Source: a virus. Taken from it: a stretch of 45,146 nt of DNA. The stretch is from positions 1 to 45,146 of IMG/VR virus record IMGVR_UViG_3300037760_000304; one strand, 5' to 3'. How positions within the stretch are numbered: position 1 is the stretch's first letter; the number at the start of each line of letters is the position of its first letter. Below the pieces are notes generated by a model that saw only the letters and a program-made list of their open reading frames with translations, made no database searches and was not told the DNA's origin. The position numbers and the translations under genes are program-made. Positions 3,554 to 45,146 of the stretch are shown here, piece by piece.

Positions 3554-5200
3554 ATGTCCGACCGCCGCAACATCGCCCGCCGCTTCGACCAGCTCCGCTC
3601 CAACCTGCGCTCGCTAGAAGACGCCGTGCTCGGCGAGCCTGAGAACCCGGTGCCGGAACCGGAGCCCGAGCCCGATCCTCGACCGGAGCCGGAACCCGAC
3701 CCGCCGGTGAGGCCGAGACCGGATCCCGAGCCCACCACCGGGTCCGCCCGCTTCCAGCTCGACGACCTTCGCGCCGTCGATCTGACGCCCGACGATCCGT
3801 GGTCCACCATCGGCGGATGGCTCCACGTTCGCGCGTGGTTCGAGCCGCGCGGCGTCACGGTCTACGCGACCAACGCCTACCCCGGCATGGGCCGCCGCCA
3901 CATCGGACGCCTGCGCGTCACGGTCGACGGCAAGGCGGCGCTCTTGGTCGAGAACAAGCCGCTGCCGCCGGGTTACGCCTACATCGCATCGACGATCCCG
4001 GCGAGCGCGGAGGCGTGGCAGGTCGATGACGATCGCTGGTTCCCGGAGTGGTCTGAGGGGCGCGTCGCGGGCGAGCTTGCATCGCACACCCAGCGCGTGC
4101 TCGATCACCCCGTCTGGTGGAGCGACCGCAACCCCGGTGCGCCCGCCGGTCACGGCGTCGCGCCCGGATGCGGAGGCGAGTGGGAATGGCTCTGCGGCCC
4201 CGCCGGGAAGGCGCTGCGCTGGCAGATGATCCTCGGCGAGTTGTGGACCAACGTTCACCGGATCGACCCCGCGACCGGCGAGCCGCTGCGCGTGCGCGAG
4301 GCGTGGTGGACAGGCAACACGGCAGCGAACCAGCTCCCGGGCTACCAGTGGACGCCCGCGACGCCCGACGAGCAAACGCTCTGGTCGCAAGGCCGAATGC
4401 ACGACGGCTATCACCGCCGCCGCGCGCTCGGGCCGTGCTCTGCGCTCGCGCGATGGAGCGAGCCCGCGAGGTTCCTCTTGCGGATGCTCTGGAACGACGT
4501 GGCGATGGAGTGGTCGATGGACCCGAAGCGCGCGCGCGACACGAACCCGCTGCTAATGCCCATGTGGCAGCGGATCGAGGAGTCGATGCCGGGCAAGAAG
4601 TACGCGGTGCCCGCATACGACCCGTGGGGGCATCGTGGGTTCGCGCACGCGGCCAACACGCTCAACGAGGTCAAACCGTACATTCCCGCCGCCGAGGCCG
4701 CCGAGTACGCCGAGGGGTTCGCCGCGCTCGCCGTGAACATCCACGACCACCACGGCATCTGCGGACGCGACGCGAGCGGCGATGCGGGACAGTGGGCGGC
4801 CCCGCCGTTCAACATGAAGCCGCCGTTCGCGATGACATTCCACGACCAGCTCGTCGGCGACGCGCTGGAGCGGCTCGGCCGCGTCTTCGGGATCGTCAAC
4901 GCGACGGAGATCGCGAAGCGCAAGCGGGCGTTCCTCACCCAAGACGTGCCGCCCTACGGGTTCGAGAGCACGCCGACCTCGAACCGGCGCGAAAACGTGT
5001 GGGCGCGCAAGCACACCGGCACTCAGGGCAACTTCGCCTACCCCGGCTACGGCGTCTTCGTGAACGGCGCGTGGATCGACGCGGACGGCTGGCGCTCGCT
5101 CGACGAACTCGACGCGCTGGCGCGGAACGATTCGCTCACGGGGCTTCCGAGGTACGAGTGCGTGCCGCCGAAGTTGCGGCCGGGAGGGGGAGTGCGATGA
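3554..5200 (+). CDS. Large orphan protein (548 aa): short N-terminal helix, PE/PEP linker, Trp/His-rich globular body
   Basis: Track ORF. Linker reads PEPEPEPDPRPEPEPDPPVRPRPDPEP. I recognise no catalytic motif. Confidence 0.75.
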   Translation: MSDRRNIARRFDQLRSNLRSLEDAVLGEPENPVPEPEPEPDPRPEPEPDPPVRPRPDPEPTTGSARFQLDDLRAVDLTPDDPWSTIGGWLHVRAWFEPRGVTVYATNAYPGMGRRHIGRLRVTVDGKAALLVENKPLPPGYAYIASTIPASAEAWQVDDDRWFPEWSEGRVAGELASHTQRVLDHPVWWSDRNPGAPAGHGVAPGCGGEWEWLCGPAGKALRWQMILGELWTNVHRIDPATGEPLRVREAWWTGNTAANQLPGYQWTPATPDEQTLWSQGRMHDGYHRRRALGPCSALARWSEPARFLLRMLWNDVAMEWSMDPKRARDTNPLLMPMWQRIEESMPGKKYAVPAYDPWGHRGFAHAANTLNEVKPYIPAAEAAEYAEGFAALAVNIHDHHGICGRDASGDAGQWAAPPFNMKPPFAMTFHDQLVGDALERLGRVFGIVNATEIAKRKRAFLTQDVPPYGFESTPTSNRRENVWARKHTGTQGNFAYPGYGVFVNGAWIDADGWRSLDELDALARNDSLTGLPRYECVPPKLRPGGGVR

Positions 5201-9419: not shown

Positions 9420-12400
9420 GGACCCCCTGGCGTCACGAGGCCGGGCAGGCGCAGCGATGCACCTCCGGGCAGGAGCGACGGTAGCCCCTGTCCGCTCTGC
9501 GCCCGACGCCGGCGCACTCCGAGGGCATCGTACTGCCTCCGCAGGTCGGAGTATTCCCTGAGCACCTGATCGAAGGCGCGATCGCGGTACTGGCGGATGA
9601 CGTTCTCGACGAGCGAGACGCGCGGGCTCTCCAGGTCCGGGGTGCTCTCGGCGGGGAGAGCCTGGTAGCGGCGGCTCGTGACGAGCTGGCGCAGGGCCGT
9701 GCGCAGGTCGCGCCCGCCCACCTGCACGTCACCGTGGAGCTGTTGCCAGCGATCGAAGGCGGTCTGCCCGCTCGTGCTGCGGTAGCTGAGCAGGTCGACG
9801 CCGCCGCGAGTCGGCGAGGGGGCGCCGAAGCCGTGGTTGAGCATGGCGAGCTGCTGGTCGACCACGCTGTCCGAGACCTCGCTGTAGGCGACCGGCATCC
9901 AGATCCGGGTGAGCTGGCCCAGCGTGTCCTCGCCGAGGCGCCGGGTGCGCTCGATCGGCTCGCCGAGCACGTTGCGCCGCGGCTCCAGGCCGGCGGAGAG
10001 GCCGGGGATGCGGTTGCGGATCGCGTCGAGGATGCCGCGCACCTCGCGCATGTTCTGGTCGCCCGCGAGGTCGACACCGGAGGCGATGGCGGAGGGGACG
10101 ACGAACGAGCCGACGAGCTGCTCGAGGAAGCGCTCGGCGCGGCGCTCGGGCGCCGAGAGGGCCTCCACGAAGTTGCGGATGCCCGTCAGGTAGCTCTTCT
10201 GCGTGAGCTGGTTCGAGAGCGCGACGACGGCGCTGGCGCCGAGGGTTGTCACCGTGTCCTGATCGCTCGTGTCCGTCCACTGCGCGTATTCGTGCAGGTC
10301 GGCGGCGACACCCACGATGGCGGCGAAGGGGTCGAGGCGCTCGTAGCTGATCCAGCGGTCGCCGACGCGCACGGAGTAGGGGCGCCAACCGGCGTTCATC
10401 AGCGCGGCGCGGCGGTTCGGCTCGTCAGGCCCGCGGCCGGTGATCTTCCCGGATGCGGTCATGCCGTAGAAGAAGCCGAGCGTCCCGAAGCCGAGCGTGA
10501 GCCGGCCCACCGCGTCGGCCTTGCGCGCGGGCGAGCCGGAGAGCATGTCCTTCAGGAAGACGTTGCGTGTCCGCTCGAGCGCCGGCATTGGCAGCAGGCC
10601 GATCTTGGCTCCTGCCAGGTGCCCAGGGCCGAGCACGTCGACACGGCGCGCGGCGAACTTGAGCAGGTTGATCGGGGTGCCGATGAAGGGCACGACGAGC
10701 CGCAGTGTCGGGTGCGCCACAACGGCGTCCTGGAGCTTCTTCGAGAGCGTGCCCTTCTCCAGTCCGCCGGTGGCCGTCACCTCGTCGGCGCGCTGGAGCG
10801 CGGTGTCGATGATCTCCTTCGAGCGCTCGTCGAAGTTCGCTTGCAGGTACGCCTTCGCGTCGTCGAGCGCGGCCGTGCCGCGCAGGCCCTTGCGGTTGGC
10901 GAGCTCCATGCCCTCGCGCAGGAGCCTCCCGCTCGTCTCGGCCTGGCCGTCGCGGATGACCCTCGCCATGCCGCTCTCGACGTACTCGGCGAGCGCCTCG
11001 TCCTTGAGGCCGAGCTTCATCGCGTCGCGGTGGAGCTCGTCGCGCGAGACCGAGCGGAAGTTGATCTGTTTCGTGAACTCGTCGATGGAACCGATCGCCG
11101 CGGACGGGAGCGGGATGATCGTGTCCATCGCGCGGAGCATGGCGCCGCCGAACTCGCTGCGCGCGAAGCTGCGGACGAGCGGGCTGCCGGCCTCGCCCAG
11201 GATGTCGGGCGAGAAGGCTCCGGGGCGGCGCGTGCCGTTGATCTCGGCTCGCAGGTGAGCGCTCGACTCCGCGTACTTGCCGGCCGTGCGCAGTTCGGGG
11301 CGCACCAGCTTCGGCGAGAGCACTCCGCGTCGGTTGCGGAATGCCTGACCGGCGACCCTGAATGCCTCGCTCGTTCCCCGGAAGAGCCCCGTGAACTGCC
11401 GCACGCCGCTCGCGATCTCGTCGGCGTTGCCGATCAGGGCGCCACCGAGCACGCGCTCGAGCGGGCGCGTCATGCTCGTGAGCACCGGGCCGACGAAGTT
11501 GATCGTGAGCGTGCGCGCGCCGGAGAGCAGGCCGTTGATCCAGACCTCGTTGAGGATGTTGAAGCCGTGGTCGGCGCCGACGGAGCGCACCACGCTCCCC
11601 AAGCCAGCGGCGCCGGCGAGACCGCCTTCGTCCATCGCCGCGCGGATCTTGCGCAGCGCGTCAAGGGCGCGCGCCTCGCCGCCGAGCTCGCGCAGGATGC
11701 CGTCCGCCTGCTCGTCGACCGCGCGCTGGAAGATGCCCGGTCCCTCCTCGCGCAGCTTCTTGGTCAGGGTGCGCAGGGGGATGCCGAAGGCGCGCAGCGC
11801 GCGCCCGGTGTCGGCCTGGAGGCTGAGGACGCCGGCTGTGAGGTCGGTGAAGAACTGCACATCCTCGAACGCGCGCGCGAGCTTGATCTTGCGCAGCGCC
11901 GGGTCGAACTCGGCGAGCGCTGCGTCGAGCGAGCGCTGCACCGAGCCAGACGTCGAGAGCATGATCGTCTCCCACGCCTGGGTGCGCGTGGTGAGCGCGC
12001 GCAGGTCGCCCGCGTCCTTGGCGATCGCAGCGCGCAGCACGTCGCGGCTGTCGCCGGCCTGCACGATGTCGGACACCGCGGCCTCGCTGGCGAGCCGCAT
12101 CTCCTCGAGGCTGCGCGGGGAGAGCGACTCCAGGTTGCCGGCGCCGTAGGTGCGCGAGAGGCCCTCGACGACGCGGACGAAGCGCGCGATGCCCTTCGGC
12201 CCCTGGAAGCGAGCGAGGTTGAGGTCGTTCGGGGCGAGCAGGTTGTCCGAGAGCTCCTCCGGGGTCATGCCCCGCGGCTGCGTCTTCGGGTCGATGCCGG
12301 CGCGCGCGGCGCGGCGGGCGTCGAGCACCCCGGCAACCGCCTCCGGATCAACAGGCAGCGGTGCCAGCGGCTCCTTGCGGGGCGCGCGCGCTTCGAGCTG

Positions 12401-17043: not shown

Positions 17044-20000
17044 TCGAGCGCGTCGATGTGGGTCGCGAGGTGCGAGTGCGCCTCGATTGTCACCACCGTC
17101 TCGGCGGGATCGGCCAGCACCGAGAACTCCCGGATCCTCGGGTAGCGCTGGACCTCACCGAAGGGGGCGCCCGGGCCGATCTCGTCGCGCAGCGGCTCGA
17201 GCTGAGAGCCGCCGCCGAAGCGGTCGGTGACGCGCAGGTCGAGGTGGATCGGGCCGCGCAGCCCGAACGCGCCGCCGAGCAGGAGGCGCCCGCCGCGCAG
17301 GTGCGGGGCGATCGAGCCGTCGCGCGCCTCGGTGCTCACGATCTGCTCGCCCGGCTTGACGACCATCGAGTACGCCTGCCCCGCCCACAGCGGGGTCTCC
17401 GAGTGGTCGCCCTCGATGACGATAGAGGTCGGGGTTGTCCGCGCGATCGCGAGCGGCTCGCCGCCCTCCGCGCCGGGAACCGCCCGCGTGACGACGCGCG
17501 CGAGCGACTCGTCGCTGAGCGTGTACGGCAGCGTGAGCGTCGTCTCGCGCTCGAGCGGGTCGTAGACGGGCGAGAGGTCGGCGTCAGAGACGCGGCGATC
17601 GAGGCACACCTGGAGCTCGCTGTCGTCGTCGAGCGCACCGGAGATCATGCGCATGACCTCCAGGTCGAGCTCGCGGTTGCGCTCGATCGCGAGGTAGAGC
17701 CGATCCTCGATCCAGTCGAGCCCGATGAGTCGCGCGCCGTCGAGCGGGTAGCGCCACCACGCGCTCTGCACGCGCCGGCCGCCGGTGACGTGAGCCTTGT
17801 AGATGTAGAGCACCGAGAGGTCGGCGTCCGCGCGCATCGCGACGACCATCTCGTTCTCGATGCTGCTCGCCACCAGGTCGAGCACGTTGCCGCGCACGTA
17901 GGTTGGAGCCTGCTCGGCGAGGTCGTTGCGGCGCAGCACGAAGCCGCTCGCGCTGTCTCCGGGCACGAAGCCCTCGCGGAGCAGGCTGAACCCACGACTC
18001 GGCGCGCACCAGAGGACGGAGGCACCAGAGGTTGCGGGGACGAGCGTGGTCAGCACGTCCGACTCGTGCACGGCCGGCATCTCCACGGTGCGCGGGGAGA
18101 GGATTGGGTCGCCGCCGACGGCGAAGATGCTGTTTTCGCTGAAGGCGAGCAGGCGCCCCTCGAAGGGCACCGCGGCGATCAGCTTGTTCACCTTGCGGTG
18201 GGCGGCGAGCGCGTCGATCGGATCGCTGTCGGGCAAGCTCAGGATCGTCGAGCGGAAGAACCGCCCGTACTTCCCGACCTCCGACATGATGACGTTCGCT
18301 GCGGAGAGCAGGCCGAGGCGATCCTTGAAGTAGAAGACATCGACGATGAAGCGGTTGGCCTCGCCGGGCGGTGTCACGAAGGACGGGAAGGGATTGCTCT
18401 CGTCGTCGCCCGTGAGCCTGTCGCCCCACTCGAACGGACCGAACTCGAAGTAGATCCCGCCCGGGGTCCCGCTTGCCGAGCCCGCGCCATCATCGAACTT
18501 GCGCAGCAGGACGTGCGGCATTGTCGCCGCGTCGAGCTCGATGTCGATGAGCGGCGCGTTGCTCTCGTGCCACTGGCCGGCTCCGATGCCGGTCCCTTGG
18601 TCGGCGCGGAACTCGACCCAGTAGTCATCCTCGGTGCCCGACGAAGTGCCGATCACGAGCGCCTTCTGGCCGTGGTAGTAGGTCGTGGGCAGGTCGTCGA
18701 GCGTCTTCACCTCGTCGGTCACGAGCTGCATGGCCTGGCTGCCGAGGCCGTCTTCGAGCGTGAACTGTTGGAAGAAGTCGTTGGGGTCCGTCGGGTTGAT
18801 GACGAGCAGACTTCCGTGCACCTCCGCGTCGATCGAGGGCTCGGCCTTGAGGAGCTCCGAGAGTGCGGCGGCGATGATCTGCGTCTCGCTGCCCCCGATC
18901 GCCTCCACGTTGATACCGAGCTGCCAAAAGATGCCCGTGGGGAAGCCGCCTGCGGGCGCGGTCGAGTCGGAGAACTGCTGCACGCTCCCGGTGAAGACCG
19001 ACTTTTCGATCACCGGCCCAAGGGAGGTCTTGACCCGCACGGTGTAGAGCTTGAGCGCGCCCCCCTGCCGCACCCACACGACGCGCTGATTCGCCGGCAC
19101 GACCTGCCCACCAGACTGCCCCGCACCGCGCCGCACGGTGGTTGTCCCGTTCACGAGCCATGTCGTGTCCTGCACGGTTGTCATGCGGACGTGCTGGGCA
19201 ACCCCGGCGATCCCGCCCCTCAGGTAGGGCGGGTAGTTCTCGAAGGTGCGCAGGTCTGTATCGGCGAACTGCGCCCCCCAGCAATCGAGCAGGTGGTCGG
19301 GCCCGAGCACTCCCTGGGCGAGCAGCTCGATTCGGATGAAGTCGACCGTCGAGAGCGCCACGCCGTCGGGCTGGTAGGTCATCTCCAGCCGCCACCAGCC
19401 TTCGCCCGCGTCGACCTCGCGCGCCTGCACGCCCGGCGATCCGGGGCTCGACTGCGAAGGCACGCCGTCGGTGAAGAGCCACGCGGCCTCGTAGCTCACG
19501 CTGGCAGGAGCCGTCTCGTGGATCACCAAGCGGATGCCGGCGACGGGTCCCGCGACGTCGGGCGCGCGCACGTAGACCGACAGGTGCTTGCGCGCCGACT
19601 GCGACGTGCCGGGTGTCGCGTGCTGATAGATGCCGTCGAAGCCGACCGTCTGGTTCGCGTGGCCGAGGCGGGCTGCGGACCCGAAGCCGAGCGGCGCCGG
19701 GATCGTCGTGGCCTGCGGCACTGTCGCGTCCTCCAGGCGCGACCAGTTGGGGCCATCGAAGGTCTCCGGGTTCGTGAGGAGCTGCGCGCCGCTGCGTGTG
19801 TCGATGTAGGTGAAGTCTGGATCGAACGGGGCGCTGGGCCCGCGCACCGGGTACTCAGCCCCGTCGGTCCCGAAGACCTGCAAGAGCCCGGGCTGGGCGA
19901 GCACGAGGTACTCCTCGTCTCCCCGGTGGATCGCGTGCAGCTTCGCCTCGCGCGTCCCCGGGGCCTCGACGACTCGCGCGAGGTGCTCTGTCGGGTGGCG

Positions 20001-30471: not shown

Positions 30472-30681
30472 TCAGCACTCCAGGTCCGCGCCCGCGGCAC
30501 CGCGCGCCATGATCTGCCGGTCCAGCCCGCGCGCTATCCCCTCCACCACCGCACGGTGAGCCTCCCGCAGCGGATCCGCCTCCCGCAGCAACGCCTCGCA
30601 CCGCGGGCACTCGAGCGGCTCCTCCCCCGCCCCACCCCATCGGCACGACCAGCACACCCAGGAGTCCGCGCTCGAGCTCAT
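30472..30681 (-). CDS. Zinc-ribbon protein (69 aa; CWSC...CPRC)
   Basis: In-frame ATG 30681 with an ATGA overlap on the upstream stop. Confidence 0.5.
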   Translation of the reverse strand: MSSSADSWVCWSCRWGGAGEEPLECPRCEALLREADPLREAHRAVVEGIARGLDRQIMARGAAGADLEC

Positions 30682-30890
30682 GCCGGCGCCCAAACGCCCT
30701 TCCTGACCTCGGAGTACCCCATCAGCTCGAGCCGCTTCCGGCCACCCGGGGTGCACGGATCGGCCAGGAGGTAGATTTCCCCGGTCTCCGGCTCGAATTG
30801 ACTGCGCTCGTGTTGCGGGACCGCCTTGGCGTCCAGGATCCGCACGGCCTCGAGCATCTCGTCGAGAGGGATGTCGCTCACGCTCAGCAT
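30678..30890 (-). CDS. Hypothetical protein (70 aa)
   Basis: C-terminal 70 aa of track ORF 30678..31235 are protein-like (MLSVSDIPLDEMLEAVRILDAK...). The upstream part is a low-complexity translation of the G/C-rich island. No SD seen. Confidence 0.45.
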   Translation of the reverse strand: MLSVSDIPLDEMLEAVRILDAKAVPQHERSQFEPETGEIYLLADPCTPGGRKRLELMGYSEVRKGVWAPA

Positions 30891-30893
30891 CTC

Positions 30894-31076
30894 AGCAGGG
30901 GGGGAGGCCAGCCCGGAGGGAGGCGAAGGTCCCAACCGGGCCGGCGCAGGGGAAGAGCCCACGCAGCCTACCACGGGCAGGGAAGCACGCGCACCAGCAG
31001 GGGGGGGCCGGGGCCACCGAACCGAAGGCCCCAGCCCCCGATACAGGGCCCAGGGGAAGGGTAGCAGGGGGGGAGG
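30894..31076 (+). repeat. Two copies of AGCAGGGGGGGAGG (30894-30907 and 31063-31076)
   Basis: Exact 14-mer read twice, 169 bp apart. Confidence 0.85.
31046..31073 (+). other. Canonical G-quadruplex motif GGG-N4-GGGG-N2-GGG-N5-GGGGGGG
   Basis: Read from sequence. Fits G3+N1-7 repeated four times. Confidence 0.5.
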
Positions 31077-31122
31077 ACCGCAGACTTTCGTGGGGGCTAG
31101 AACGTCCACCTTGCCGCGGCTT

Positions 31123-31156
31123 CCCCCCCCTTGGGGCTCGAGGGGGGTGGGGGGGG
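31123..31156 (+). other. C8 tract followed by G4, G6 and G8 tracts (C8:G8 hairpin or second G4 motif)
   Basis: CCCCCCCC at 31123-31130, GGGG at 31133-31136, GGGGGG at 31142-31147, GGGGGGGG at 31149-31156. Confidence 0.6.
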
Positions 31157-31414
31157 TCGGCCTTCGACCTCGCCGGGCTCGATCGGCGCGGCGCTGCGAG
31201 CCTAAGCCCTTGCGCTGCATGGCCGAGCATCGCATTGCCTATGCGATAGCGCTCCCGGACCGGGCTCGAGCTCTGGCGTGGCGCGCCAACTTGAACCTCA
31301 CGTGAGAGTTGACCCACCTCTGACTGAGGCCCTGCTGCCTCTCTCACTCTCCTGCCCAGTGTGACCTCTCGGCCGCTCGGAGAAGCCCGGAAGGGCTCTG
31401 AGCTCTGGTCCATC

Positions 31415-31557
31415 CTCTGCTCTGCCTGCCCTGGCCTGCTCTGAGTCTCCTGCCTGCTTCTGCTGCCGCCTTCCGGCGCCGGGCTTCCTGAGCCGCAGTC
31501 CTGGACTCTGAGCCTGCCTGCTCTGTGCTGAGGGTACCGAGGCCCTGTCCTGCTCTG
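31415..31557 (+). repeat. Pyrimidine-rich tract with four copies of (C/T)CTGCTCTG
   Basis: CCTGCTCTG at 31435-31443, 31517-31525 and 31549-31557. TCTGCTCTG at 31416-31424. Spacing is irregular. Confidence 0.6.
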
Positions 31558-31748
31558 TCAAGCCTTGCGTCCCGGATGTTGTGAGCGTCGGGCTGGAGCT
31601 CGAGCCCTGCCCTCCTGGTCCGCATTCGCATTCCGTGCGATTTCTCCGGGTTTGTTGACACCTTCTGCTCGCCGGCGGCGTTTAGTGGTGCGGTGCTCGA
31701 TTGGTTCGAGCGCTCGGGCTCGGATTGACCTTCCGGGCTCGGACCGAT

Positions 31749-31766
31749 GACCTTGCAACTGGAGGA
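31749..31766 (+). promoter_or_regulatory. Copy 1 of conserved motif GACCTTGCAAC(T)GGAGGA, upstream of ATG 31774
   Basis: Exact string read. GGAGGA lies 7 nt from the ATG. Confidence 0.6.
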
Positions 31767-31773
31767 TGGACCG

Positions 31774-32124
31774 ATGACCGCTACCGACTTCGCGCGCTGC
31801 GTCTCCTGCCACGTGCCGACTCGTCGCTCGTTCCGTGGGGATGCGAGCTGCAAGGGCTGCACGCGCTCGAGGCTCTCGGAGCTCTGGAGCGATGCGAGCC
31901 TCGCGGGCTGGAAGGCTCTGGGCTCGGGCGCTACGGCGCCGCTGCTGCACGCGGAGAACTGTGCCACGGATGCGCTCGCCTTCCTGGACGCGGGGGACCG
32001 GGCGAAGGCCCTCGAGTTGTCGGAGCTCGCGGCGGGCTCGAGCGTGCACTTCGCGGGCTTCGCGCGCGCGGTCGCCGCGGCGGTCGAGCCGCATCCGCGC
32101 GGCTGGTTCCAGACTGAGGGTTAG
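31774..32124 (+). CDS. Zinc-ribbon protein (116 aa; CVSC...CKGC); alternative start 31747
   Basis: Track ORF 31747..32124. ATG 31774 is the one preceded by the motif and SD. GGACCGATGACC is duplicated at 31741 and 31768, so both ATGs share the same context. Confidence 0.6.
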   Translation: MTATDFARCVSCHVPTRRSFRGDASCKGCTRSRLSELWSDASLAGWKALGSGATAPLLHAENCATDALAFLDAGDRAKALELSELAAGSSVHFAGFARAVAAAVEPHPRGWFQTEG

Positions 32125-32134
32125 GCCCGGTGCG

Positions 32135-32152
32135 GCGCGGCTCCGGCCGCGC
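32135..32152 (+). terminator. GC hairpin (GCGCGGC-UCCG-GCCGCGC) after the 31774..32124 gene
   Basis: 7-bp stem read from sequence. No U-tract. Confidence 0.4.
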
Positions 32153-32187
32153 GTCCCGATACTCCGCGCTCTACCGGGAGAGCGCAC

Positions 32188-32205
32188 GACCTTGCAACTG
32201 GAGGA
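32188..32205 (+). promoter_or_regulatory. Copy 2 of conserved motif GACCTTGCAACTGGAGGA, upstream of ATG 32214
   Basis: Identical 18-mer to copy 1. Confidence 0.6.
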
Positions 32206-32213
32206 CTGAGGCT

Positions 32214-33419
32214 ATGCAGGTTCCGAAGGGATTGGAGCTCGAGCGCGCGTGCTCGAAGGGCCCGAGCCGCTACGGCGCGCTCGACTCGATCAGTGTCGAG
32301 CAGGAGGGGACTGGGCACGTGGCCGTGGCAACCGATGGGAAGGTTCTGGCGGTGGTGCCGGTCAACCTCGAGGAGGGTGACGAGCCGGGCCTGATCCCGG
32401 CGCGTGCATGGGCGGATGCGCGGCGCGCGTCGAGGGATGGGGGGCGCCTGTCGCCGAACGGGCTCGTGCGCTGGGCCGTGAAGGGCGGCGCCGTGGCGAG
32501 CGCGGAGCGGCCGTCCGGTGACTTCCCGAAGTGGCGGGCCGTGCTGCCGCCCGCGGATGCGAAGGCGCCCGTCCTGGCCTTCAACGCGGAGTACCTGGCG
32601 GACCTGGCGCGGGCGCTCGGGAGCGACTCGGGCTCCGTGCGGCTGGAGCTCCCGGTGGACGAGGAGGGCCGGCTCCGCACTCTCGCTCCCTTCCGCGTCG
32701 TCGCGGGGTGCGGCTTCGGCGCCATCATGCCCGTCACCCTCGACTCGGACGGCGGGAAGGGGCCCGTCGTGCGCGCTGGCGCAGCGGAGCCGCTCGGGGC
32801 GCCTTCCGGGCCCTCGGCCGATGCTCTGCTCGTCGCCGAGCTCCGGGGCGATCTGGCGGAGCTCCGCGGCGCGATGGACGAGTGCGAGCGCAAGCTCACG
32901 GCCGCGGCCGGTGCTCGTGACCTAGCGCTGGACACTGCGCGCGAGCTCCGCATCCGGCTCGAGACGGCCGAGCGCGAGCGGGATGCCGCCGTGTTCGCGC
33001 GGAGCGCGGCGGTTGCCGAGCTCGAGGGATCCGCTCCGCTCCCGGAGCTCCCGCCCGACGCGCAGGAGCTCGAGGGCCCGACCGTCCGGGCCGGCAAGGC
33101 GCCCGGTTACGTCGAGGTGCTCTTCCCGGAGAAGCCCGGATACCTCGTGCGCGCTGACCTGAAGGCCGCGGGCTTCCGCTGGTCGAAGGCCGACGGGCTC
33201 TGGTGGGGGCGGGAGGACCGGCTCCCCTCGCGGCTCGGTGTGCGGGCGAGCGTGGAGCCCGTCACGGTCGCCGAGGTCGAGCTCGAGGACGCGCGGGCGC
33301 AGCACGAGCCGGCTCCGAAGGCGCGGCCGCGCGTCAAGGCGCCGAGTCGCGAGCACGGCGCCGCGCCGAGCCGCAAGCGCGCGAGCGCTCCGGCTCCCGG
33401 CGGGTCCATCGCGTTCTAG
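32214..33419 (+). CDS. Beta-sliding-clamp-like (DnaN-fold) N-terminal region fused to a coiled coil and a small C-terminal domain (401 aa)
   Basis: VATDGKVLAVVP, GDFPKWRAVLPP, FNAEYLADLARAL and GAIMPVTLD parallel DnaN ATDGHRLA, GRFPDYRRVLP, FNVSYVLDVLNAL and YVVMPMRL. Only about 200 aa are clamp-like. The C-terminus reads YVEVLFPEKPGYLVRADLKAAGFRWSKADGLWWG. Confidence 0.65.
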   Translation: MQVPKGLELERACSKGPSRYGALDSISVEQEGTGHVAVATDGKVLAVVPVNLEEGDEPGLIPARAWADARRASRDGGRLSPNGLVRWAVKGGAVASAERPSGDFPKWRAVLPPADAKAPVLAFNAEYLADLARALGSDSGSVRLELPVDEEGRLRTLAPFRVVAGCGFGAIMPVTLDSDGGKGPVVRAGAAEPLGAPSGPSADALLVAELRGDLAELRGAMDECERKLTAAAGARDLALDTARELRIRLETAERERDAAVFARSAAVAELEGSAPLPELPPDAQELEGPTVRAGKAPGYVEVLFPEKPGYLVRADLKAAGFRWSKADGLWWGREDRLPSRLGVRASVEPVTVAEVELEDARAQHEPAPKARPRVKAPSREHGAAPSRKRASAPAPGGSIAF

Positions 33420-33429
33420 GCGTCGAAAC

Positions 33430-33507
33430 GGCCGGGGGCCCGCGCTCCCGGCCCGTAGACGGGTCGCTCCCGTCCTGAAGATGACTCCGCGCGGCTCGCT
33501 CCCGCGC
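33430..33507 (+). terminator. Three consecutive GC hairpins in the 33420-33530 gap
   Basis: GGCCGGG/CCCGGCC at 33430-33453, GACGGG/CCCGTC at 33458-33474, GCGCGG/CCGCGC at 33489-33507. Confidence 0.4.
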
Positions 33508-33509
33508 AT

Positions 33510-33525
33510 GACCTTGCAACGGAGA
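33510..33525 (+). promoter_or_regulatory. Copy 3 of conserved motif (GACCTTGCAACGGAGA), upstream of ATG 33531
   Basis: Read from sequence. Confidence 0.55.
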
Positions 33526-33530
33526 TTCCA

Positions 33531-34697
33531 ATGGTGAGTGTGAACCTGACTCAGGCTCACGACCAGTGGGCGAACCGCCCGGCTGACGAGCGATTCTGGA
33601 CCGTGGCCGAGATGCGCGGCGCGTGCCTGAAGCGCGCGACCGCAACGGCGCTCGCGAGCGTGAACCCGCGCGAGCTCGAGGGGCGCTCCGATGGCGCCGA
33701 GCCTTTCCTGGTCGGGCCGACGGGCACGGCCGCGCGCTTCACCTTCTCGGGCTTCGGCTCGCTCGCCGCGCTCGCCGGGGCGCCGGCGAACTACTTGCGC
33801 TCGCTCCCGGCCGAGCTCGCCGCGGATGCGCTGACCTACGGGCTGCGCAACGGGCCCGGCTGCGCGCGCTCCCTCATGCTGACGCGGCGCGAGGAGGGCG
33901 GGCTGCTCGAGCTCCGCGGCGCGACGAGCGAGCGCTACGCGCGGGTCTGGGACTTCGAGGTGTGCGAGGCCCTCGAGCGGCTCGCCGCGCTCGGATGGGT
34001 CGCTCCGCCGGCGCGCGTGCCGCACGGGTACAAGGGTGAGACGCGCACGGCCGGCGCCGGCGACGTCATCGCTCTCGGCTCCGGGGGCGGCGCGGCCGTG
34101 CGGGTCGGTGACGAGATCGCGCCCGCGGGGCTCTACTCCTCGGATGCGGAGATGTTCGCCTTCCTGGTCCAGCCCGAGGCCCGGATCGAGCTCGGCACTG
34201 GCAACTCGCTCGCGCGCGGCGTGTTCGTGCGCAACTCGGAGACCGGCGGGGGCGCGCTCGAGCTCTGCTCGTTCCTGCTCGAGGGGGTGTGTGGCAACCA
34301 TATCGTCTGGGGCGCGAGCGAGGTGCAGACGCTCCGGGTCGCGCACGTCGGGGACGTCCGGGCGACCTTCGACGCGGCCGGCGCCGAGCTCGAGCGCTAC
34401 GCGGAGTCGAGCACGCGAGACGAGCTCGAGGCGATCGGGCGCGCGCGGCGCTACCGGCTCGCCGAGTCCGCGGATGACCTGGTGACGCGCTTGCACGGCG
34501 CGCGGCTGCTCCCGCAACGCACGGCGCGCGAAGCGTTCGGGCTGGCCGAGCAGCACGACCAGTGGGGCGGCGACCCGCTGACCGCCTGGGGCTTCGTGCA
34601 CGGGCTCACGCGGCTGTCGCAACGCGAGCAGCACGCCGACGCGCGGCTCGGGCTGGATCGCGTCGGGGGCCGCATCCTGGAGCTCGTGCCGCGATGA
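33531..34697 (+). CDS. DUF932-like (phage/plasmid-like protein, TIGR03299-type), 388 aa
   Basis: Size and segments such as YSSDAEMFAFLV and GVFVRNSETGGGALELCSFLLEGVCGNHIVWG resemble DUF932 as I remember it. Not verified by search. Confidence 0.6.
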   Translation: MVSVNLTQAHDQWANRPADERFWTVAEMRGACLKRATATALASVNPRELEGRSDGAEPFLVGPTGTAARFTFSGFGSLAALAGAPANYLRSLPAELAADALTYGLRNGPGCARSLMLTRREEGGLLELRGATSERYARVWDFEVCEALERLAALGWVAPPARVPHGYKGETRTAGAGDVIALGSGGGAAVRVGDEIAPAGLYSSDAEMFAFLVQPEARIELGTGNSLARGVFVRNSETGGGALELCSFLLEGVCGNHIVWGASEVQTLRVAHVGDVRATFDAAGAELERYAESSTRDELEAIGRARRYRLAESADDLVTRLHGARLLPQRTAREAFGLAEQHDQWGGDPLTAWGFVHGLTRLSQREQHADARLGLDRVGGRILELVPR

Positions 34698-34903
34698 GCG
34701 CTCACCGGATCACCCTCTCGGTGCTCGGCTGGATCCACGGGAGCCGCACGCCCCGACCCTTCCGGCTGGACGGCAGGGGGCGCGGGCTCGACCTGGCGCG
34801 CGCTGAAGCGCTGAAGCTCCCGCCGCGCCAGTGGTCGAGCGAGGCCCGGCTCGTGCGCGCGGCCCTGCTCGCCCGGGCGAAGCGCGAAGGCGCGCGGCGC
34901 TGA
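34694..34903 (+). CDS. Hypothetical basic protein (69 aa)
   Basis: ATGA overlap with the upstream stop. In-frame part of track ORF 34562..34903. Confidence 0.4.
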   Translation: MSAHRITLSVLGWIHGSRTPRPFRLDGRGRGLDLARAEALKLPPRQWSSEARLVRAALLARAKREGARR

Positions 34904-34910
34904 ACGGAAC

Positions 34911-34936
34911 GCGCGGGGGCCCTGCGGCTCCCGCGC
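34911..34936 (+). terminator. GC hairpin (GCGCGGG/CCCGCGC, 12-nt loop); a second hairpin at 34979-34997
   Basis: Read from sequence in the 34904-35032 gap. Confidence 0.35.
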
Positions 34937-35007
34937 ATGGCGCGCACTCACCCGAGCCTGCACGCGGCGCGCGCTGCACTCCCGCACGGGGCGGGAGACC
35001 GATCGGG

Positions 35008-35024
35008 GACCTTGCAACGGAGGA
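35008..35024 (+). promoter_or_regulatory. Copy 4 of conserved motif (GACCTTGCAACGGAGGA), upstream of ATG 35033
   Basis: Read from sequence. Confidence 0.55.
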
Positions 35025-35032
35025 TCGGAGCG

Positions 35033-35209
35033 ATGGAAGAGAAGCATGTTCAAGCCGGGCGCGGTTGCGCCTGCGGCGCCGTGCGCGCGGCGCTCGAGGC
35101 CCTGCTCGACTGGTGCCGCGAGCACACGGGGCCGACGCAACCCGACTCGCCGCACGCGCTGCTCGTCGCGGCGCACGAAGCGCTCGCGAGCGCGGAGCTC
35201 CGCTCATGA
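35033..35209 (+). CDS. Hypothetical protein (58 aa) immediately upstream of the integrase (excisionase position)
   Basis: In-frame ATG of track ORF 34937..35209, preceded by the motif and SD. ATGA overlap with the integrase start. Confidence 0.45.
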   Translation: MEEKHVQAGRGCACGAVRAALEALLDWCREHTGPTQPDSPHALLVAAHEALASAELRS

Positions 35210-36054
35210 CCTCCTCGAAGTCCGCGCCGCTCACCCTGGCCGAGCTCGTGGAGCTCACCTATCGCACGCGCTGGGCTGGTCAGGCGAGCGAGGAGACGAG
35301 CATGGGGAACGCGCGCGCCGTGGCCGAGCTGCTCGGGCCCGATCGCCGGGCCGACCGGCTCACGCAAGCGCACCTGGACCGGCTCGTGTCGAAGCTCGCG
35401 GCGCAGCACGCTCCGGCGACGGTCGCGCGCAAGCTCGCCGCGCTCTCGGCCATGCTCGCCACGGCGCGCGCTCACGGCGCCCAGGTCGGGCCCCTACGGC
35501 TTGCACCGCCTCGGGTGCGCAACGGGCGCCACCGCGTACTGACCGACGATGAGGAGGAGGCGCTGCTCGGCGCGCTGGCCGAACGCGAGGACGCGCCGGG
35601 CCGCACGGCCTGCCGGCTCGTCATGTTCCTGCTCGCCACCGGCGCGCGGGCCGGCGAGGCGCTGGGGCTTGCACCTTCTCGGGTCGAGCGCGAGCTCGGC
35701 GCGGTCTACGTCACCTTCGAGGCGACGAAGAACAACACGAGCCGGCGCCTGCCGCTCCCATCGTCGTACTGGTCGGCGCTCGAGATGGATGAGGCTGGAG
35801 AGCGGGTCTTCCCGATCACCTACATGAGTTTCATTCGCATCTTTGCCGCGGCTCGGGTCGCGGCGGGGATCAGTGACGACGTGACGCCCCACGTTCTGCG
35901 GCACACCTGCCTCACGCGCTTGATTCGGGCGGGTATGGACCCGATGAAGGTCATGCGCTGGGCGGGGCACAAGAACATCAAGACGACACAGGGGTACGTG
36001 CACCTCTGCGGGGCCGATCTGCTCGACCTCGCAGAGGCGCTCGATAAGGGCTAG
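35206..36054 (+). CDS. int: Tyrosine integrase/recombinase, short XerC/D-like form (282 aa)
   Basis: ATGARAGEAL (Arg), HVLRHTCLTRL (H-x-x-R) and GHKNIKTTQGYVH (His...Tyr). An N-terminal SAM-like core-binding region is present but there is no arm-binding domain. The track ORF's upstream extension is rejected. Confidence 0.9.
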   Translation: MTSSKSAPLTLAELVELTYRTRWAGQASEETSMGNARAVAELLGPDRRADRLTQAHLDRLVSKLAAQHAPATVARKLAALSAMLATARAHGAQVGPLRLAPPRVRNGRHRVLTDDEEEALLGALAEREDAPGRTACRLVMFLLATGARAGEALGLAPSRVERELGAVYVTFEATKNNTSRRLPLPSSYWSALEMDEAGERVFPITYMSFIRIFAAARVAAGISDDVTPHVLRHTCLTRLIRAGMDPMKVMRWAGHKNIKTTQGYVHLCGADLLDLAEALDKG

Positions 36055-36356
36055 GAGCCGTCCCGCGTGCGCGCTGTCCCGGCCGTCTCTTCGGTCGGGA
36101 TCCCCTCGTCCTGGGTCTCCCACAGGTGGAAGCAGTACGGGTGCGCGTTGACGTACTCGGCGCGGGGCGGCAGCAGCATCGCCATGCGCAGCGCGTCGGG
36201 CAGCAAGTCGTAGCGCGCGTCGGCGATCTCGTCCCATGTCGGATATCGCGTGGGCGTCGAGATCGACAGGTGCCACCGGCCTTCTTCCTGCGCGAGCAGG
36301 ACGGTGAGCGGGCCGCGCTTGAACTGCTGCGCGGAACCGCCGCAGACGAGCGGCAT
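36051..36356 (-). CDS. Hypothetical protein (101 aa; GRWHLSIS...PTWDEI...CFHLWE)
   Basis: In-frame ATG 36356 of track ORF 36051..36476. The upstream part is Arg-rich shadow. Confidence 0.5.
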   Translation of the reverse strand: MPLVCGGSAQQFKRGPLTVLLAQEEGRWHLSISTPTRYPTWDEIADARYDLLPDALRMAMLLPPRAEYVNAHPYCFHLWETQDEGIPTEETAGTARTRDGS

Positions 36357-36385
36357 TCGCCCGCATGGCGTCCAGTTGATCGCGC

Positions 36386-37351
36386 TCAAGTCTCCTCCCC
36401 GCGCGGCTCCCGGCCGATCAGTTGCCCGATGTCGTCGAAGGCGAGCACGAGGATCTCGTCGATGTCGGAGCGGCACCAGACCTCGGGCACGGTCACGGCC
36501 TCGAGCTCGGCGAGGAACGCCGCGACCTTCTCGCGGTCGGGCGCGCGGTCGGCCTCGAGCTTGGCCTGCTCGCGCGCCTGCCGCTTCTGGTACTCGGCCT
36601 GCGCTTCGCGCTTGGCCTTCGCTTCCTCGTCGCGCGCACGGTTCGCCTCGGCCATCGCGGCAGCCTCGGCCTCGGCACGCTGAGCGTCCTCGCGCTCCTT
36701 CACGGCCCTCTCGCGCGCAGCGACAGCCTCACGCTCCTGGGCCACGCGCTGCTGCTCGGCGCGGTTCGCGGCCTCCTGCTCGGCCCACACTGCGGCGAGC
36801 CGCGCCTTCTCGGCTTCGATCGCGGCCTGCTCTGCCGCCTTGAGCTCCGCCTCTTCGGCCGCCTTGGCGGCCCGCGCCTCGGCCGCGGCTTGGCACTCCC
36901 GAAGGAGATCCTCGAAGTTCGCGTCGCTCATCTTCTCGACGGCGCGCACGTCGATCATCGTGGGGTTCGTGGCCTCCAGCGCATCGAGCCGCACGCGCAG
37001 CGCCTCGGCGGCCTGCGCCGCCTTGTGCTCCTCGACCTTGCGCTCCTCGGCGGCGAGATGCTCCTCGATGGGCTCCATGAGCGCCGTGATTCGCTTCGCC
37101 TCGCCGTCGACCACCTTGCCCCAGCGCAGCGCGTCCTCCTTCAGCCGCTTGCGCGTCTTCTCCACCTCGACGCGCGCGCTCTTGACGGTCATCCGCGCCT
37201 CGTGCACGACGGCGAGTTGAGCCCGGCTCTCGACGTCGGTGACGGCGAGGGCCATGAACTGCTCGCGCCACACTGCGATCTGCTGCTCGGGGGCGACGAG
37301 TCGGTACTCCTCGTTGGCCCGAACCAGGTCCGTCTTGGTCTCCGGGCTCAT
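36386..37351 (-). CDS. Coiled-coil protein (321 aa), Ala/Glu/Lys/Arg-rich
   Basis: In-frame ATG 37351 with an ATGA overlap on the DnaC-like stop. Long heptad-like AEEAELKAAEQAAIEAEKARL tracts. Confidence 0.65.
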   Translation of the reverse strand: MSPETKTDLVRANEEYRLVAPEQQIAVWREQFMALAVTDVESRAQLAVVHEARMTVKSARVEVEKTRKRLKEDALRWGKVVDGEAKRITALMEPIEEHLAAEERKVEEHKAAQAAEALRVRLDALEATNPTMIDVRAVEKMSDANFEDLLRECQAAAEARAAKAAEEAELKAAEQAAIEAEKARLAAVWAEQEAANRAEQQRVAQEREAVAARERAVKEREDAQRAEAEAAAMAEANRARDEEAKAKREAQAEYQKRQAREQAKLEADRAPDREKVAAFLAELEAVTVPEVWCRSDIDEILVLAFDDIGQLIGREPRGEET

Positions 37352-38190: not shown

Positions 38191-38965
38191 GGGTTCTCCC
38201 GTGGGTTGGGGGCAGGACGAGCTTGGCGTAGCTCCCGGCGAGGGAGTTCGAGACGGCCGCCTCGAGCTCGTCGGGGGTCCAGGCGGCGACTTCGGTGAGC
38301 GCCGCGATGGCGCTCTCGTTCGAGTAGGGGCGCGAGAGGGTCGCGCGGAGGTGGTTCTCCCACAGCTCGAGCTGCGCGGCCTTGCGGCCTTCGAGGAGCT
38401 GCGGGAAGCGAGCGACCTTCTGCGAGTGCCAGGCCTTCAGCAGGTTCCGGGATCTCGGGAGGTGGTCTTCCTCCCCCGCCGGCTCGGCCGGCTCACCGGC
38501 GGCGAAGCCGCTGCCTGCGACCTGGCCGGAGGGTAGGGGGGCTACGGGGGGTTGCAGGGTCTCTGGTTCTGGTTCTGGTTCTGGAGGTGGAGAGGATTGC
38601 CGCTGGAGTCCATTTGGAGGTCCATTTGGATTGCGCTTGGACTCCCATCGGACCGCATTGGCAGCGACGGCGCGGCCCGACTGCCCGAGTGCCTCGGCCC
38701 GCTCCAGCTCGAGCCGCTTCTGGATCCAGCCGGCGGGCGTCTCGGTCCAACACGGGCGGATGTCGCTCGCCCACAGCGCCGGGTCCCAGCCGAGGCCCCG
38801 GATCACGCGCTCCGGGTCGACGATCGGGCCGACCTGCCACGAGTGGTCAAGGAGCTCGCGGTACGCGCCGCGGGCGGCGGGCGGCATCGTCCGCACGAGT
38901 GGGTCGCCGTGGAAGTCCTCGGGGTACCACGCGAACCAGTGGAGCCGACCCTTGCGGCGTGCCAC
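38111..38965 (-). CDS. Replication initiator/organiser with DUF1376-like N-terminal domain (284 aa)
   Basis: LHWFAWYPEDFHGDPLVRTMPPAARGAYRELLDHSW resembles the DUF1376 signature. PEPEPEPE linker. GTG start abuts the stop of the XRE gene. Confidence 0.65.
   Translation of the reverse strand: MARRKGRLHWFAWYPEDFHGDPLVRTMPPAARGAYRELLDHSWQVGPIVDPERVIRGLGWDPALWASDIRPCWTETPAGWIQKRLELERAEALGQSGRAVAANAVRWESKRNPNGPPNGLQRQSSPPPEPEPEPETLQPPVAPLPSGQVAGSGFAAGEPAEPAGEEDHLPRSRNLLKAWHSQKVARFPQLLEGRKAAQLELWENHLRATLSRPYSNESAIAALTEVAAWTPDELEAAVSNSLAGSYAKLVLPPTHGRTHDRTAPPQRPPSRHSGSEPPRVLKQI
38562..38585. repeat. Tandem hexamer TCTGGT x4 (last copy imperfect), encoding the PEPEPE linker on the minus strand
   Basis: Read from sequence. 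Confidence 0.8.
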
Positions 38966-39211: not shown

Positions 39212-39212
39212 G

Positions 39213-39230
39213 CGGGAAGGATCCTTCCCG
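39213..39230. promoter_or_regulatory. Perfect 18-bp palindrome CGGGAAGGATCCTTCCCG, 2 nt upstream of the XRE start
   Basis: Read from sequence. It covers the only SD-like element (AAGGA) of the XRE gene. Confidence 0.6.
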
Positions 39231-39240
39231 ATTGCAGCAC

Positions 39241-39263
39241 GGTCAAGATAAAACTCCTTGACC
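39241..39263. promoter_or_regulatory. Inverted repeat GGTCAAG-N9-CTTGACC (AT-rich spacer)
   Basis: Read from sequence. The right arm coincides with the -35-like TTGACC. Confidence 0.55.
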
Positions 39264-44707: not shown

Positions 44708-45146
44708 CGAACAAGCACGAGCATCCCGCGCGCGAGCGGGTGGACGTGAGGGATCTAGTCGGGAAGGTGGCCGCAATGGCTATCCACGGACCAGCGCAGA
44801 CGCGCGAGGAAGTCGACCGCCTACGAGACGCGGTGTTCGCCCTCGGAGCGGAGCGCGACGCCGCCGAGTCCGCGCTCGCGGCGAGCCGGGCGGAGCGGGA
44901 TGCGCTGGCGGTCGGCATTGGTCGGTCTGTCGGTGGCGGATTTGCACACCCCGGCGAGCGGATCACCCGTTCGGTTGCTCGACTCCGTGATGAGCACACC
45001 GCATTCGCGATGCGATTGGCCGCGCGCGAGGAAGAGCTCGCGGCGAGCCGGGCGGAGGTTGAGTGGCTACAAGAGATGCTCGTCGAAGCGGCAACGGCGT
45101 GGAGCGCGGGCGTCTCGTTCGATGGCGCGTTCACGTCCAGTTGGCG
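44704..45146 (+). CDS. 5' part of wrap-around hypothetical coiled-coil protein (continues at 3..218)
   Basis: GTG 44704 overlaps TGA 44705-44707. I translated the frame to 45146 and found no stop. An alternative start is ATG 44776. Confidence 0.6.
   Translation, partial: MTNKHEHPARERVDVRDLVGKVAAMAIHGPAQTREEVDRLRDAVFALGAERDAAESALAASRAERDALAVGIGRSVGGGFAHPGERITRSVARLRDEHTAFAMRLAAREEELAASRAEVEWLQEMLVEAATAWSAGVSFDGAFTSSW
45020..45146. repeat. Right copy of exact 127-bp terminal duplication (= 1..127)
   Basis: Same as left copy. Confidence 0.95.

Follow-up and report, generated by a model that had tools for sequence, protein, structure and literature searches.

This study concerns a viral DNA sequence of 45,146 nt (IMG/VR record IMGVR_UViG_3300037760_000304, positions 1 to 45,146; "the window"), which represents a temperate podovirus. 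In it, an 11-nt element, GACCTTGCAAC, directly precedes the Shine-Dalgarno (SD) sequence of four cistrons in one operon that runs from a small gene, g1, to an integrase gene. The four-copy feature is real and non-random. An earlier annotation of the same DNA (the original prediction) had described the element and suggested that it might be a promoter, a DNA operator or a translational operator. We favor, with a probability of roughly 0.45, the interpretation that it belongs to a portable, start-associated leader module in which the 11-mer acts on the mRNA, in translation initiation. The copies are as follows:

31749–31766, plus strand: motif copy 1, GACCTTGCAAC-T-GGAGGA, 7 nt before the g1 ATG, flanked by the direct repeat GGACCGATGACC
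32188–32205, plus strand: motif copy 2, GACCTTGCAAC-T-GGAGGA, 8 nt before the g2 ATG
33510–33525, plus strand: motif copy 3, GACCTTGCAAC-GGAGA, 5 nt before the g3 ATG
35008–35024, plus strand: motif copy 4, GACCTTGCAAC-GGAGGA, 8 nt before the g5 ATG

An invariant element at four start codons

The 11-mer occurs exactly four times in the window, starting at 31749, 32188, 33510 and 35008 and always on the plus strand; all four positions had been given correctly in the original prediction. The pattern CCTTGCAAC-N0-1-GGAG matched four times, against 0.00 matches expected from 100 dinucleotide shuffles. In every copy GGAG begins 0–1 nt after the 11-mer, the start codon is ATG, and 10–15 nt separate it from the end of the 11-mer. 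Counted from the end of GGAG(G)A, the spacers of copies 1 to 4 are 7, 8, 5 and 8 nt; the start codons had been named correctly, but the distance is 5–8 nt and not the 6–8 nt first reported. An independent gene call of this contig gives the same four starts (31774, 32214, 33531 and 35033), and the N-termini of homologues support those of g2 and g3.

The element has sharp edges. Mean pairwise identity among the copies is 1.00 across the 11-mer and GGAG, 0.28 in the 30 nt upstream and ~0.3 beyond. A recent duplication would leave an identity that decays gradually, a pattern not seen here. As had been claimed, copies 1 and 2 agree at all 18 positions, and the conservation does seem far above what an SD sequence requires: 11 invariant nt lie 5ʹ of GGAG. 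These 11 nt are not complementary to the usual CCUCC-UUU tail of 16S rRNA, although the host's own tail may differ. Similarity in the flanks pairs copies 1 and 4, and copies 2 and 3; the presence or absence of the T before GGAG pairs copies 1 and 2, and copies 3 and 4. Copies 2 and 3 also share ACTCCGCGC, which begins 26–27 nt before the motif and not at the distance of about 28 nt that had accompanied this observation.

The distribution of the motif follows the layout of the operon, the genes of which are:

31774–32124, plus strand: g1, 116 aa, with an N-terminal CxxC...CxxC
32214–33419, plus strand: g2, 401 aa, common to the related loci L178, L304, L306 and L308
33531–34697, plus strand: g3, a DUF932-family protein of 388 aa
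34694–34903, plus strand: g4, a basic protein of 69 aa, with its start in an ATGA overlap with the g3 stop; no motif
35033–35209, plus strand: g5, a 58-aa protein
35206–36054, plus strand: tyrosine integrase (int), 282 aa, with an ATGA overlap with g5; the last gene of the operon

The motif precedes each of the four operon starts that follow a gap (880, 89, 111 and 129 nt) and neither of the two that overlap the preceding stop codon, those of g4 and int, the integrase being translationally coupled to g5 through the ATGA overlap. No copy is found in the structural, replication or recombination modules, nor does any other gene in the complete genome have one. The motif always adjoins the SD, within the last 25 nt of gaps that are 89–129 nt long, and is present wherever the ribosome must load afresh, which points to translation initiation. 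Adjacency to an SD is meaningful on RNA only.

The statement that the motif occurs nowhere else in the window is borne out by exact, one-mismatch and fuzzy searches, the last of which (up to three edits, indels allowed, with an SD and a start codon) gave nothing convincing. The sole match with one mismatch (38551–38561, minus strand) is in a proline-rich coding stretch and is followed by neither GGAG nor a start. A degenerate fifth copy upstream of the XRE gene (GACCGTGCTGCAATCGGGAAGGA) would need at least five edits and was treated as chance.

Copy 1 has an additional feature. The 12-mer GGACCGATGACC occurs twice (31741–31752 and 31768–31779), as noted earlier, and forms a direct repeat around TTGCAACTGGAGGAT and the motif that creates an upstream in-frame ATG at 31747. 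The leader around copy 1 aligns with the leader of the g2-like gene of L306. Comparison of the two homologous leaders suggests an insertion or duplication of 27 nt that may have brought the motif and a strong SD in front of g1.

Hairpins upstream of the element

A GC-rich hairpin lies 2–10 nt upstream of each of the four copies. The hairpins of the operon are:

31716–31740, plus strand: hairpin before copy 1, GGGCUCGGA / UCCGGGCUC, 9 bp, present in the centroid and minimum free energy (MFE) folds
32135–32152, plus strand: hairpin A of the g1–g2 gap, GCGCGGC-UCCG-GCCGCGC, with a UNCG-type loop and no U-tract
32161–32185, plus strand: ACTCC plus hairpin B of the g1–g2 gap, GCGCUCU-ACCGGG-AGAGCGC
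33430–33453 and 33458–33474, plus strand: two hairpins of the g2–g3 gap
33484–33507, plus strand: ACTCC plus hairpin B of the g2–g3 gap, GCGCGG-CUCGCUC-CCGCGC
34911–34936, plus strand: hairpin A of the g4–g5 gap
34978–34997, plus strand: hairpin Bʹ with ACTCC in the g4–g5 gap, CUCCCGC-ACGGG-GCGGGAG, followed by ACCGATCGGG

All hairpins of the original prediction (32135–32152, 33430–33507, 34911–34936 and 34979–34997) are present; to these we add the hairpin upstream of copy 1. The folding energies of the hairpin regions are unexceptional relative to shuffled sequences (z from −2.0 to +0.6). We regard the hairpins as real because of comparison with other phages and not because of energy. They are homologous to intergenic hairpins of three other metagenomic phages, with compensatory changes in the stems. 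Positions 32102–32186 of the window align with 6589–6680 of L178, a locus with homologues of g2 and g3, at 77% identity over 92 nt (E 9e-11). Four compensatory pair changes separate the hairpins of the g1–g2 gap from those of L178, three of them in hairpin A; hairpin B shows a compensatory U-A to G-C change relative to L178 6655–6680 (GCGCGCU-ACCGGG-AGCGCGC). The middle hairpin of the g2–g3 gap (33458–33474) has two compensatory changes relative to L306, a phage of the same type as the IMG/VR contig L308/L317, and ACTCC plus hairpin B of this gap match L306/L308 at 23 of 24 positions (GACTCCGCGCGGGTCGCTCCCGCGC). The compensatory changes and the UNCG-type loops are evidence that the hairpins are selected as structures. 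In a terminator scan of 30500–36500 the hairpins lacked U-tracts and were not terminator-like, and the whole window gave no match to Rfam at the gathering threshold.

The same cassettes in related phages carry other sequences next to the SD

Homologous hairpin cassettes can be compared at the position of the motif, the slot between the last hairpin and the SD. The gap that follows the DUF932 gene of L178 is a homologue of the g1–g2 gap of the window. Its slot is empty: the 17 nt that correspond to window copy 2 (C-GACCTTGCAAC-TG region) are missing, and hairpin B leads straight into AGAGGAA-N7-ATG. The gap before int in L306/L308 is a homologue of the g2–g3 gap. Alignment with L306 extends from the stop codon, TAG-R-CGTCGAAACG, through ACTCCGCGCGG-S-TCGCTCCCGCGC, and then diverges into CGACAACACC-GAGGAA. 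The slot of L306/L308/L317 holds a 14-mer, GCGCCGACAACACC, before int and before the g2-like gene, both of which are gap-preceded starts. Before the g2-like gene it follows ACCGATCGGG, the sequence that also precedes window copy 4. The private 12-mer of the L306 type occurs only at these two starts in 19.3 kb, including 10 kb of structural genes and the RNA polymerase (RNAP) gene. A further DUF932 locus of lower GC content (L179, 658–4054) has ACACCACA-N-AGAGA before four starts.

Across these phages the hairpins group by cassette type, whereas slot sequences group by phage. In the window, the same 11-mer stands beside both types of hairpin B. Ordinary gene conversion would not homogenize 11 nt and leave the adjacent hairpin untouched, and common descent would likewise have carried the neighboring hairpin along. 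The sequence of the 11-mer is therefore under selection of its own, apart from the hairpins, and selection for a phage-specific recognition sequence explains the pattern. The motif itself is absent from L178, L304 and L306/L308. Absence at orthologous positions in relatives had been proposed as a sign of a mere duplicated ribosome-binding context. The motif is indeed absent there, but the homologous slot of one relative has a different repeated motif, which argues for a phage-specific function.

Several other loci were compared. The DUF932 loci L180, L301 and L303 are unrelated elements and are uninformative on the motif. In L178, GATCATCCCTGA precedes two genes (5375 and 10382) on opposite strands, each time in the sense orientation. 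L317 has four copies of a 15-nt tandem repeat, CGTGCCAGACGCCGC, at 19228–19290, where it follows the RNAP gene directly and closes the contig. Two copies of the motif occur in an Acidimicrobiaceae metagenome-assembled genome (MAG) (L032, 3200–3290) as tandem 16-mers, GACCKTGCAACGGGAG. Matches in the Acidimicrobiia MAGs L011, L033, L043, L045, L052, L188 and L222 (GACCTTGCAACCGGAGGAG...TGATG) are coding sequence, ..ADLATGG.., at an orthologous junction with a coupled start, and were judged a coincidence.

The phage genome and the operon

Nucleotides 1–127 of the window recur exactly at 45020–45146, indicating a complete circular assembly of 45,019 bp, to which one public contig corresponds. The phage has a T7-type portal, tail tube, internal core proteins, capsid and terminase; its other genes encode, besides the tyrosine integrase, an XRE protein, a DnaC-like loader and YqaJ/RecT. 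Hints of the host are weak, the nearest structural and integrase relatives being alphaproteobacterial. There was no RNAP or sigma factor in the complete genome (no PF00940 match in any large open reading frame), and tblastn with the RNAPs of L304 and L306 against the genome was negative. In L306 the gene order is the g2 homologue, DUF6876, the integrase (47% identical to that of the window) and a T7-like RNAP. L304 also has a T7-like RNAP gene directly after the integrase gene, and L304 and L306/L308 are the closest integrase relatives.

The g2 protein combines a domain like one domain of the bacterial beta sliding clamp (PDB profile matches, E 2e-7), a coiled coil and a conserved GFRW...W.G domain at the C-terminus; its homologues are encoded at 4144–5376 of L178 and 201–1337 of L306. 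Family searches gave no match for g1, which has no homologue in the related loci, and nothing informative emerged for g1, g4 or g5 from searches of protein families and the PDB.

The operon is preceded by a leader in which no gene was called:

30891–31773, plus strand: gene-free leader of ~880 bp

The promoter of the operon is presumably in this leader. It has G-runs at ~30900–31150, followed by a pyrimidine-rich plus strand with short repeats of the CTCTG/CTGCC type at 31320–31560. In L308 a gene-free, G-rich stretch of ~650 bp likewise precedes the operon. Possible contents of 30891–31773 are the genome ends, attP and a long regulated leader.

A unique perfect inverted repeat, GGTCAAG-N9-CTTGACC (39241–39263), is located between the XRE gene and a divergent gene. 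It is unrelated to the 11-mer and is the probable operator of XRE. Directly before the XRE start codon there is a 16-nt palindrome, GGGAAGGATCCTTCCC (region 39212–39235). ARAGORN called a 96-nt tRNA-Arg(GCG) at 9980–10075, inside the gene for a 1287-aa internal virion protein and on the opposite strand; this call is probably a false positive.

Discussion

What might an invariant sequence next to the SD do? The element is best described as one module: a stable GC hairpin comes first, then a G-poor tag of 11 nt (GACCUUGCAAC), a strong SD (GGAGGA) and ATG. Such a module stands before every cistron from g1 to the integrase gene that is beyond the reach of translational coupling. We propose that it acts on the mRNA. 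The hairpin would insulate and protect the initiation region. The 30S subunit occupies a stretch of mRNA upstream of the SD, and the tag would be within that stretch. A phage-specific trans-acting factor, protein or RNA, could read the tag and switch the four initiation sites on or off together, so that the early proteins and the integrase would be made in concert. Slot sequences are G-poor in all phages compared, and a G-poor slot would keep the tag single-stranded in a transcript of 70% GC. G-poverty does not require identity at 11 of 11 positions, and from this we infer a phage-specific reader, which would contact the tag as RNA and may either repress or activate. Of the three earlier suggestions, a translational operator is the best fit to the anatomy, but the way in which it was thought to work, by pairing of CCUU in the tag with GAGG to mask the SD, is not established: the helix has only 4 bp, and among the local folds it is missing from copy 3 and present in the other three copies. 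In other local folds, the conserved CUCC before hairpin B can pair weakly with GGAG; the resulting helix is stacked on hairpin B, and the tag forms a bulge of 12–14 nt. This fold is the MFE structure for copy 3 and is within 0.6–1.0 kcal/mol of the MFE for copy 2 and L306. The combination of hairpin B, bulged tag and CUCC:GGAG helix is a folding model only.

A further step, which we put forward as doubtful, is that the tag is the address of a post-transcriptional immunity or timing system. A phage-encoded factor of matching specificity would bind the bulged tag between the hairpin and the SD:anti-SD helix and gate every independently initiated early cistron, including the integrase, and the tag would have been swapped among relatives (GACCUUGCAAC versus GCCGACAACACC) within homologous cassettes.

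Several observations weigh against a role of the 11-mer in translation initiation. The helices that could mask the SD are only 4–5 bp long and show no covariation. Predicted accessibility of the tag (0.40–0.69 unpaired) barely exceeds a background of ~0.36 and is uneven among the copies, and the accessibility and MFE analyses gave no consistent structure for it. Neither a trans-acting factor nor a complementary RNA was found. No sibling phage was detected in the phage database, the genome collection or IMG/VR; the best homologues are 49% (g3) and 47% (integrase) identical, the database of known phages gave no DNA match, and close relatives of the DUF932 protein, the capsid protein and g2 are absent from the genome collection. 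Elsewhere, in genomes (58 matches, close to our estimate for chance), in IMG/VR (14) and, among the matches listed, in metagenomes, the exact motif occurs as single matches at about the rate expected by chance, apart from the tandem copies in L032. The private motifs of the relatives have two copies each. Finally, an asymmetric DNA-binding protein explains the phage-specific grouping of the slot sequences equally well.

Such a DNA-level mechanism is the main rival explanation. A phage protein bound to the four 11-mers, as to stoperators, would block RNA polymerase and silence the integrase and the early genes in the lysogen. The motif is asymmetric, co-oriented with transcription, intergenic and phage-specific, and the phage is temperate; moreover, the slot contents vary from one related phage to another, as would be expected of immunity determinants. 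Stoperators of the L5 type share these properties (PMC9283540). Nonetheless, we consider a roadblock of this kind unlikely. There are four sites in one operon and not more than 20 across the genome, and a fixed position 0–1 nt from the SD in gaps of 89–129 nt would be meaningless on DNA. The sole recognizable repressor-like protein is the 81-aa XRE protein, which has a probable palindromic operator of its own and no 11-mer in its control region, and searches of the phage proteins did not identify a second DNA-binding protein. The operator for a DNA-binding dimer suggested originally is a weak proposal, as only TTGCAA is palindromic, the copies are co-oriented and XRE probably has an unrelated repeat of its own; the motif is unlikely to be the XRE operator, and it is the asymmetric form that retains some plausibility. 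Quite unlikely, in our judgment, is a neutral origin, in which motif and SD leader were spread by short duplications or by recombination of cassettes, in the manner of promoter early stem-loop (PeSL) elements or moron boundaries, and are simply young. Copy 1 lies between 12-nt direct repeats and resembles a 27-nt insertion relative to the L306 leader, the hairpin cassettes are at different gene junctions in different phages like mobile boundary elements, the phage encodes RecT and YqaJ, and the flanks and the T group the copies in a reticulate way. A neutral history does not account for sharp edges, with 44 of 44 motif positions identical and flanks at background, or for an 11-mer beside two older hairpin-B types that were not homogenized. 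Nor does it account for a different private motif in the slot of L306/L308 or for a motif at all four starts that depend on ribosome loading and at no others.

RNA processing is a still more doubtful function. Early RNA of T7 is cut by RNase III, and here the structural genes are T7-like, the operon is at an early-region position and, in relatives, it runs into an RNAP gene. Each gap has two or three structure-conserved hairpins without U-tracts, some with UNCG loops, and cleavage between hairpins A and B or at the tag would yield stable monocistronic mRNAs that carry hairpin and tag. However, classical RNase III sites are longer than the 6–11 bp of these stems, the preference of RNase E (R-N-cut-W-U-U) is not matched by the 11-mer, and a site for a host nuclease should be common to related phages and not private. 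The repeated promoter of the original prediction, used by a host or phage polymerase with cistrons insulated by terminator hairpins, is not supported, and we consider it very improbable. The order of hairpin, conserved box and GGAG does resemble promoters of the T7 group, which end in GGGAGA, and the closest integrase relatives encode a T7-like RNAP. Yet neither an RNAP nor a sigma factor is encoded in the complete genome; conservation is limited to 11 nt, whereas promoters of the T7 group comprise ~17–23 bp that span the start site and precede middle and late genes; positions −12 to −17 are random; the motif is in one operon only; the hairpins lack U-tracts; and the private motif of the RNAP-encoding relative is found at two early-operon starts and not in 10 kb of structural genes. 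Nothing resembling a sigma-70 site was detected in 30500–36500. Promoters for sigma-54 have GG at −24 and GC at −12, with the spacing TGGCAC-N5-TTGC. The motif has TTGCA, but the dinucleotides 12 and 11 nt upstream of its GC are GC, GC, TA and CA, with no GG at −24. Reading TTGCAA as a −35 box would place the −10 in sequence at the start codon that is not conserved. The different slot sequences of relatives argue against a host promoter element.

Other candidate functions were rejected. The core does not fit the RYYYAAC/GTTRRRY consensus of integron attC or a similar recombination site, the stems are simple (6–11 bp) and the integrase gene is at the 3ʹ end of the operon. Arm-type sites for the integrase would not be expected in copies spread over 3.3 kb, and an integrase of 282 aa leaves no room for an arm-binding domain. 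A CsrA-type site (A-N-GGA) fits copies 3 and 4 only, and the ATGACC prefix of a possible upstream mini-ORF is present in copies 1 and 3 only. Extended pairing with 16S rRNA is limited to a 6-nt match to the generic GUAACAAGGUA region, as expected by chance. For an antisense partner there is one chance-level 11-mer: the sole anti-motif match (38551–38561, plus strand, GTTGCAGGGTC, with one G:U pair) is inside a DUF1376 gene on the minus strand and has no adjacent complement to the SD. About 0.3 such matches are estimated by chance, and an antisense scan with one mismatch was within shuffle expectation.

The closest known analogue is the start-associated sequence (SAS) and extended SAS (ESAS) of Cluster K mycobacteriophages (GGGATAGGAGCCC) and Cluster EF Microbacterium phages (GGGAAAGGACCCC) (PMC3203893, PMC7302621). 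SAS are asymmetric 13-mers at the position of the ribosome-binding site, 3–7 bp from mostly ATG starts; the genes that they precede are non-structural and follow gaps exceeding 50 bp, inverted repeats lie directly upstream of them, and they occur in 10–19 copies; their authors also favored a role in translation initiation (PMC3203893, PMC7302621). They have been known since 2011, in two groups of actinobacteriophages, and the literature searched held no study that settles their function. Like SAS, the element described here is a short asymmetric motif in one orientation, with an SD core a few nt before ATG, possibly conserved beyond the needs of 16S pairing, absent from the rest of sequence space, and limited to non-structural genes after long gaps (880, 89, 111 and 129 nt); as in ESAS, an inverted repeat lies directly upstream, here 2–10 nt from each copy. 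There are also differences. GACCTTGCAAC(T)GGAGGA has no sequence similarity to GGGATAGGAGCCC or GGGAAAGGACCCC apart from the GGAG core, and its conserved part is wholly 5ʹ of the SD, whereas that of SAS flanks the SD. It has four copies in one operon and not 10–19, and its phage is a temperate T7-like podovirus and not an actinobacterial siphovirus. In Cluster K the authors found no maintained pairing, whereas the upstream repeats here keep their pairing through compensatory changes. Cluster K SAS are common across subclusters; among the relatives compared here, the homologous slot is either empty or filled by another motif.

Stoperators of Cluster A phages such as L5 and Bxb1 are asymmetric intergenic 13-mers, oriented with transcription and specific to immunity groups of temperate phages (PMC9283540). 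Their more than 20 sites across the genome include the operator at the early lytic promoter, and they are bound by a dedicated, monomeric, two-domain repressor with a helix-turn-helix and a stoperator domain (PMC9283540). All four copies of our motif are in the sense orientation, as stoperators are, but they are confined to one operon and have a fixed relation to the SD, which stoperators lack, and the only candidate repressor found, the 81-aa XRE protein, has a probable palindromic site of its own. PeSL elements of T4-type phages are stem-loop cassettes between small early genes, at the break-points of exchanged modules (PMC2839356, PMC4122927). Similarly, the cassettes described here are homologous between phages yet flank different genes, after the DUF932 gene in L178 and before int in L306/L308. 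In contrast to PeSL, which include an early promoter for host sigma-70, no such promoter and no U-tract terminator were detectable in 30500–36500. The conserved part of PeSL is common to phages, whereas the start-adjacent part here is private to each phage.

Shutoff of several phage mRNAs by one trans-acting factor at or near their SDs has precedents in T4 RegA and the c4 antisense RNA of P1 and P7. The targets of c4 are phage-specific immunity determinants in a single leader, and RegA sites are AU-rich and poorly conserved. In our phage the tag stands before each gap-preceded cistron, unlike the c4 target, and is invariant, unlike RegA sites. Neither a RegA homologue nor an antisense RNA was found in the phage.

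The phenomenon has already been described in other phages. The anatomy of SAS is now seen in an unrelated type of phage, and two features are added to the earlier cases: the upstream repeats behave as true hairpins, with compensatory changes, and the tag is exchangeable or absent within homologous cassettes. If the element is merely a favored, portable ribosome-binding leader, it would be a useful expression part for high-GC hosts and not a discovery. The natural tag swap makes the role of such sequences directly testable: are they specificity determinants for a regulator, translational or transcriptional, that acts on the early and integrase genes of temperate T7-like phages? If the tag is indeed an address, it would also gate the coupled pair of integrase and RNA polymerase in relatives, the tag swap would be the RNA-level counterpart of a switch in operator and repressor specificity, and the system would offer the first mechanistic handle on start-associated sequences generally.

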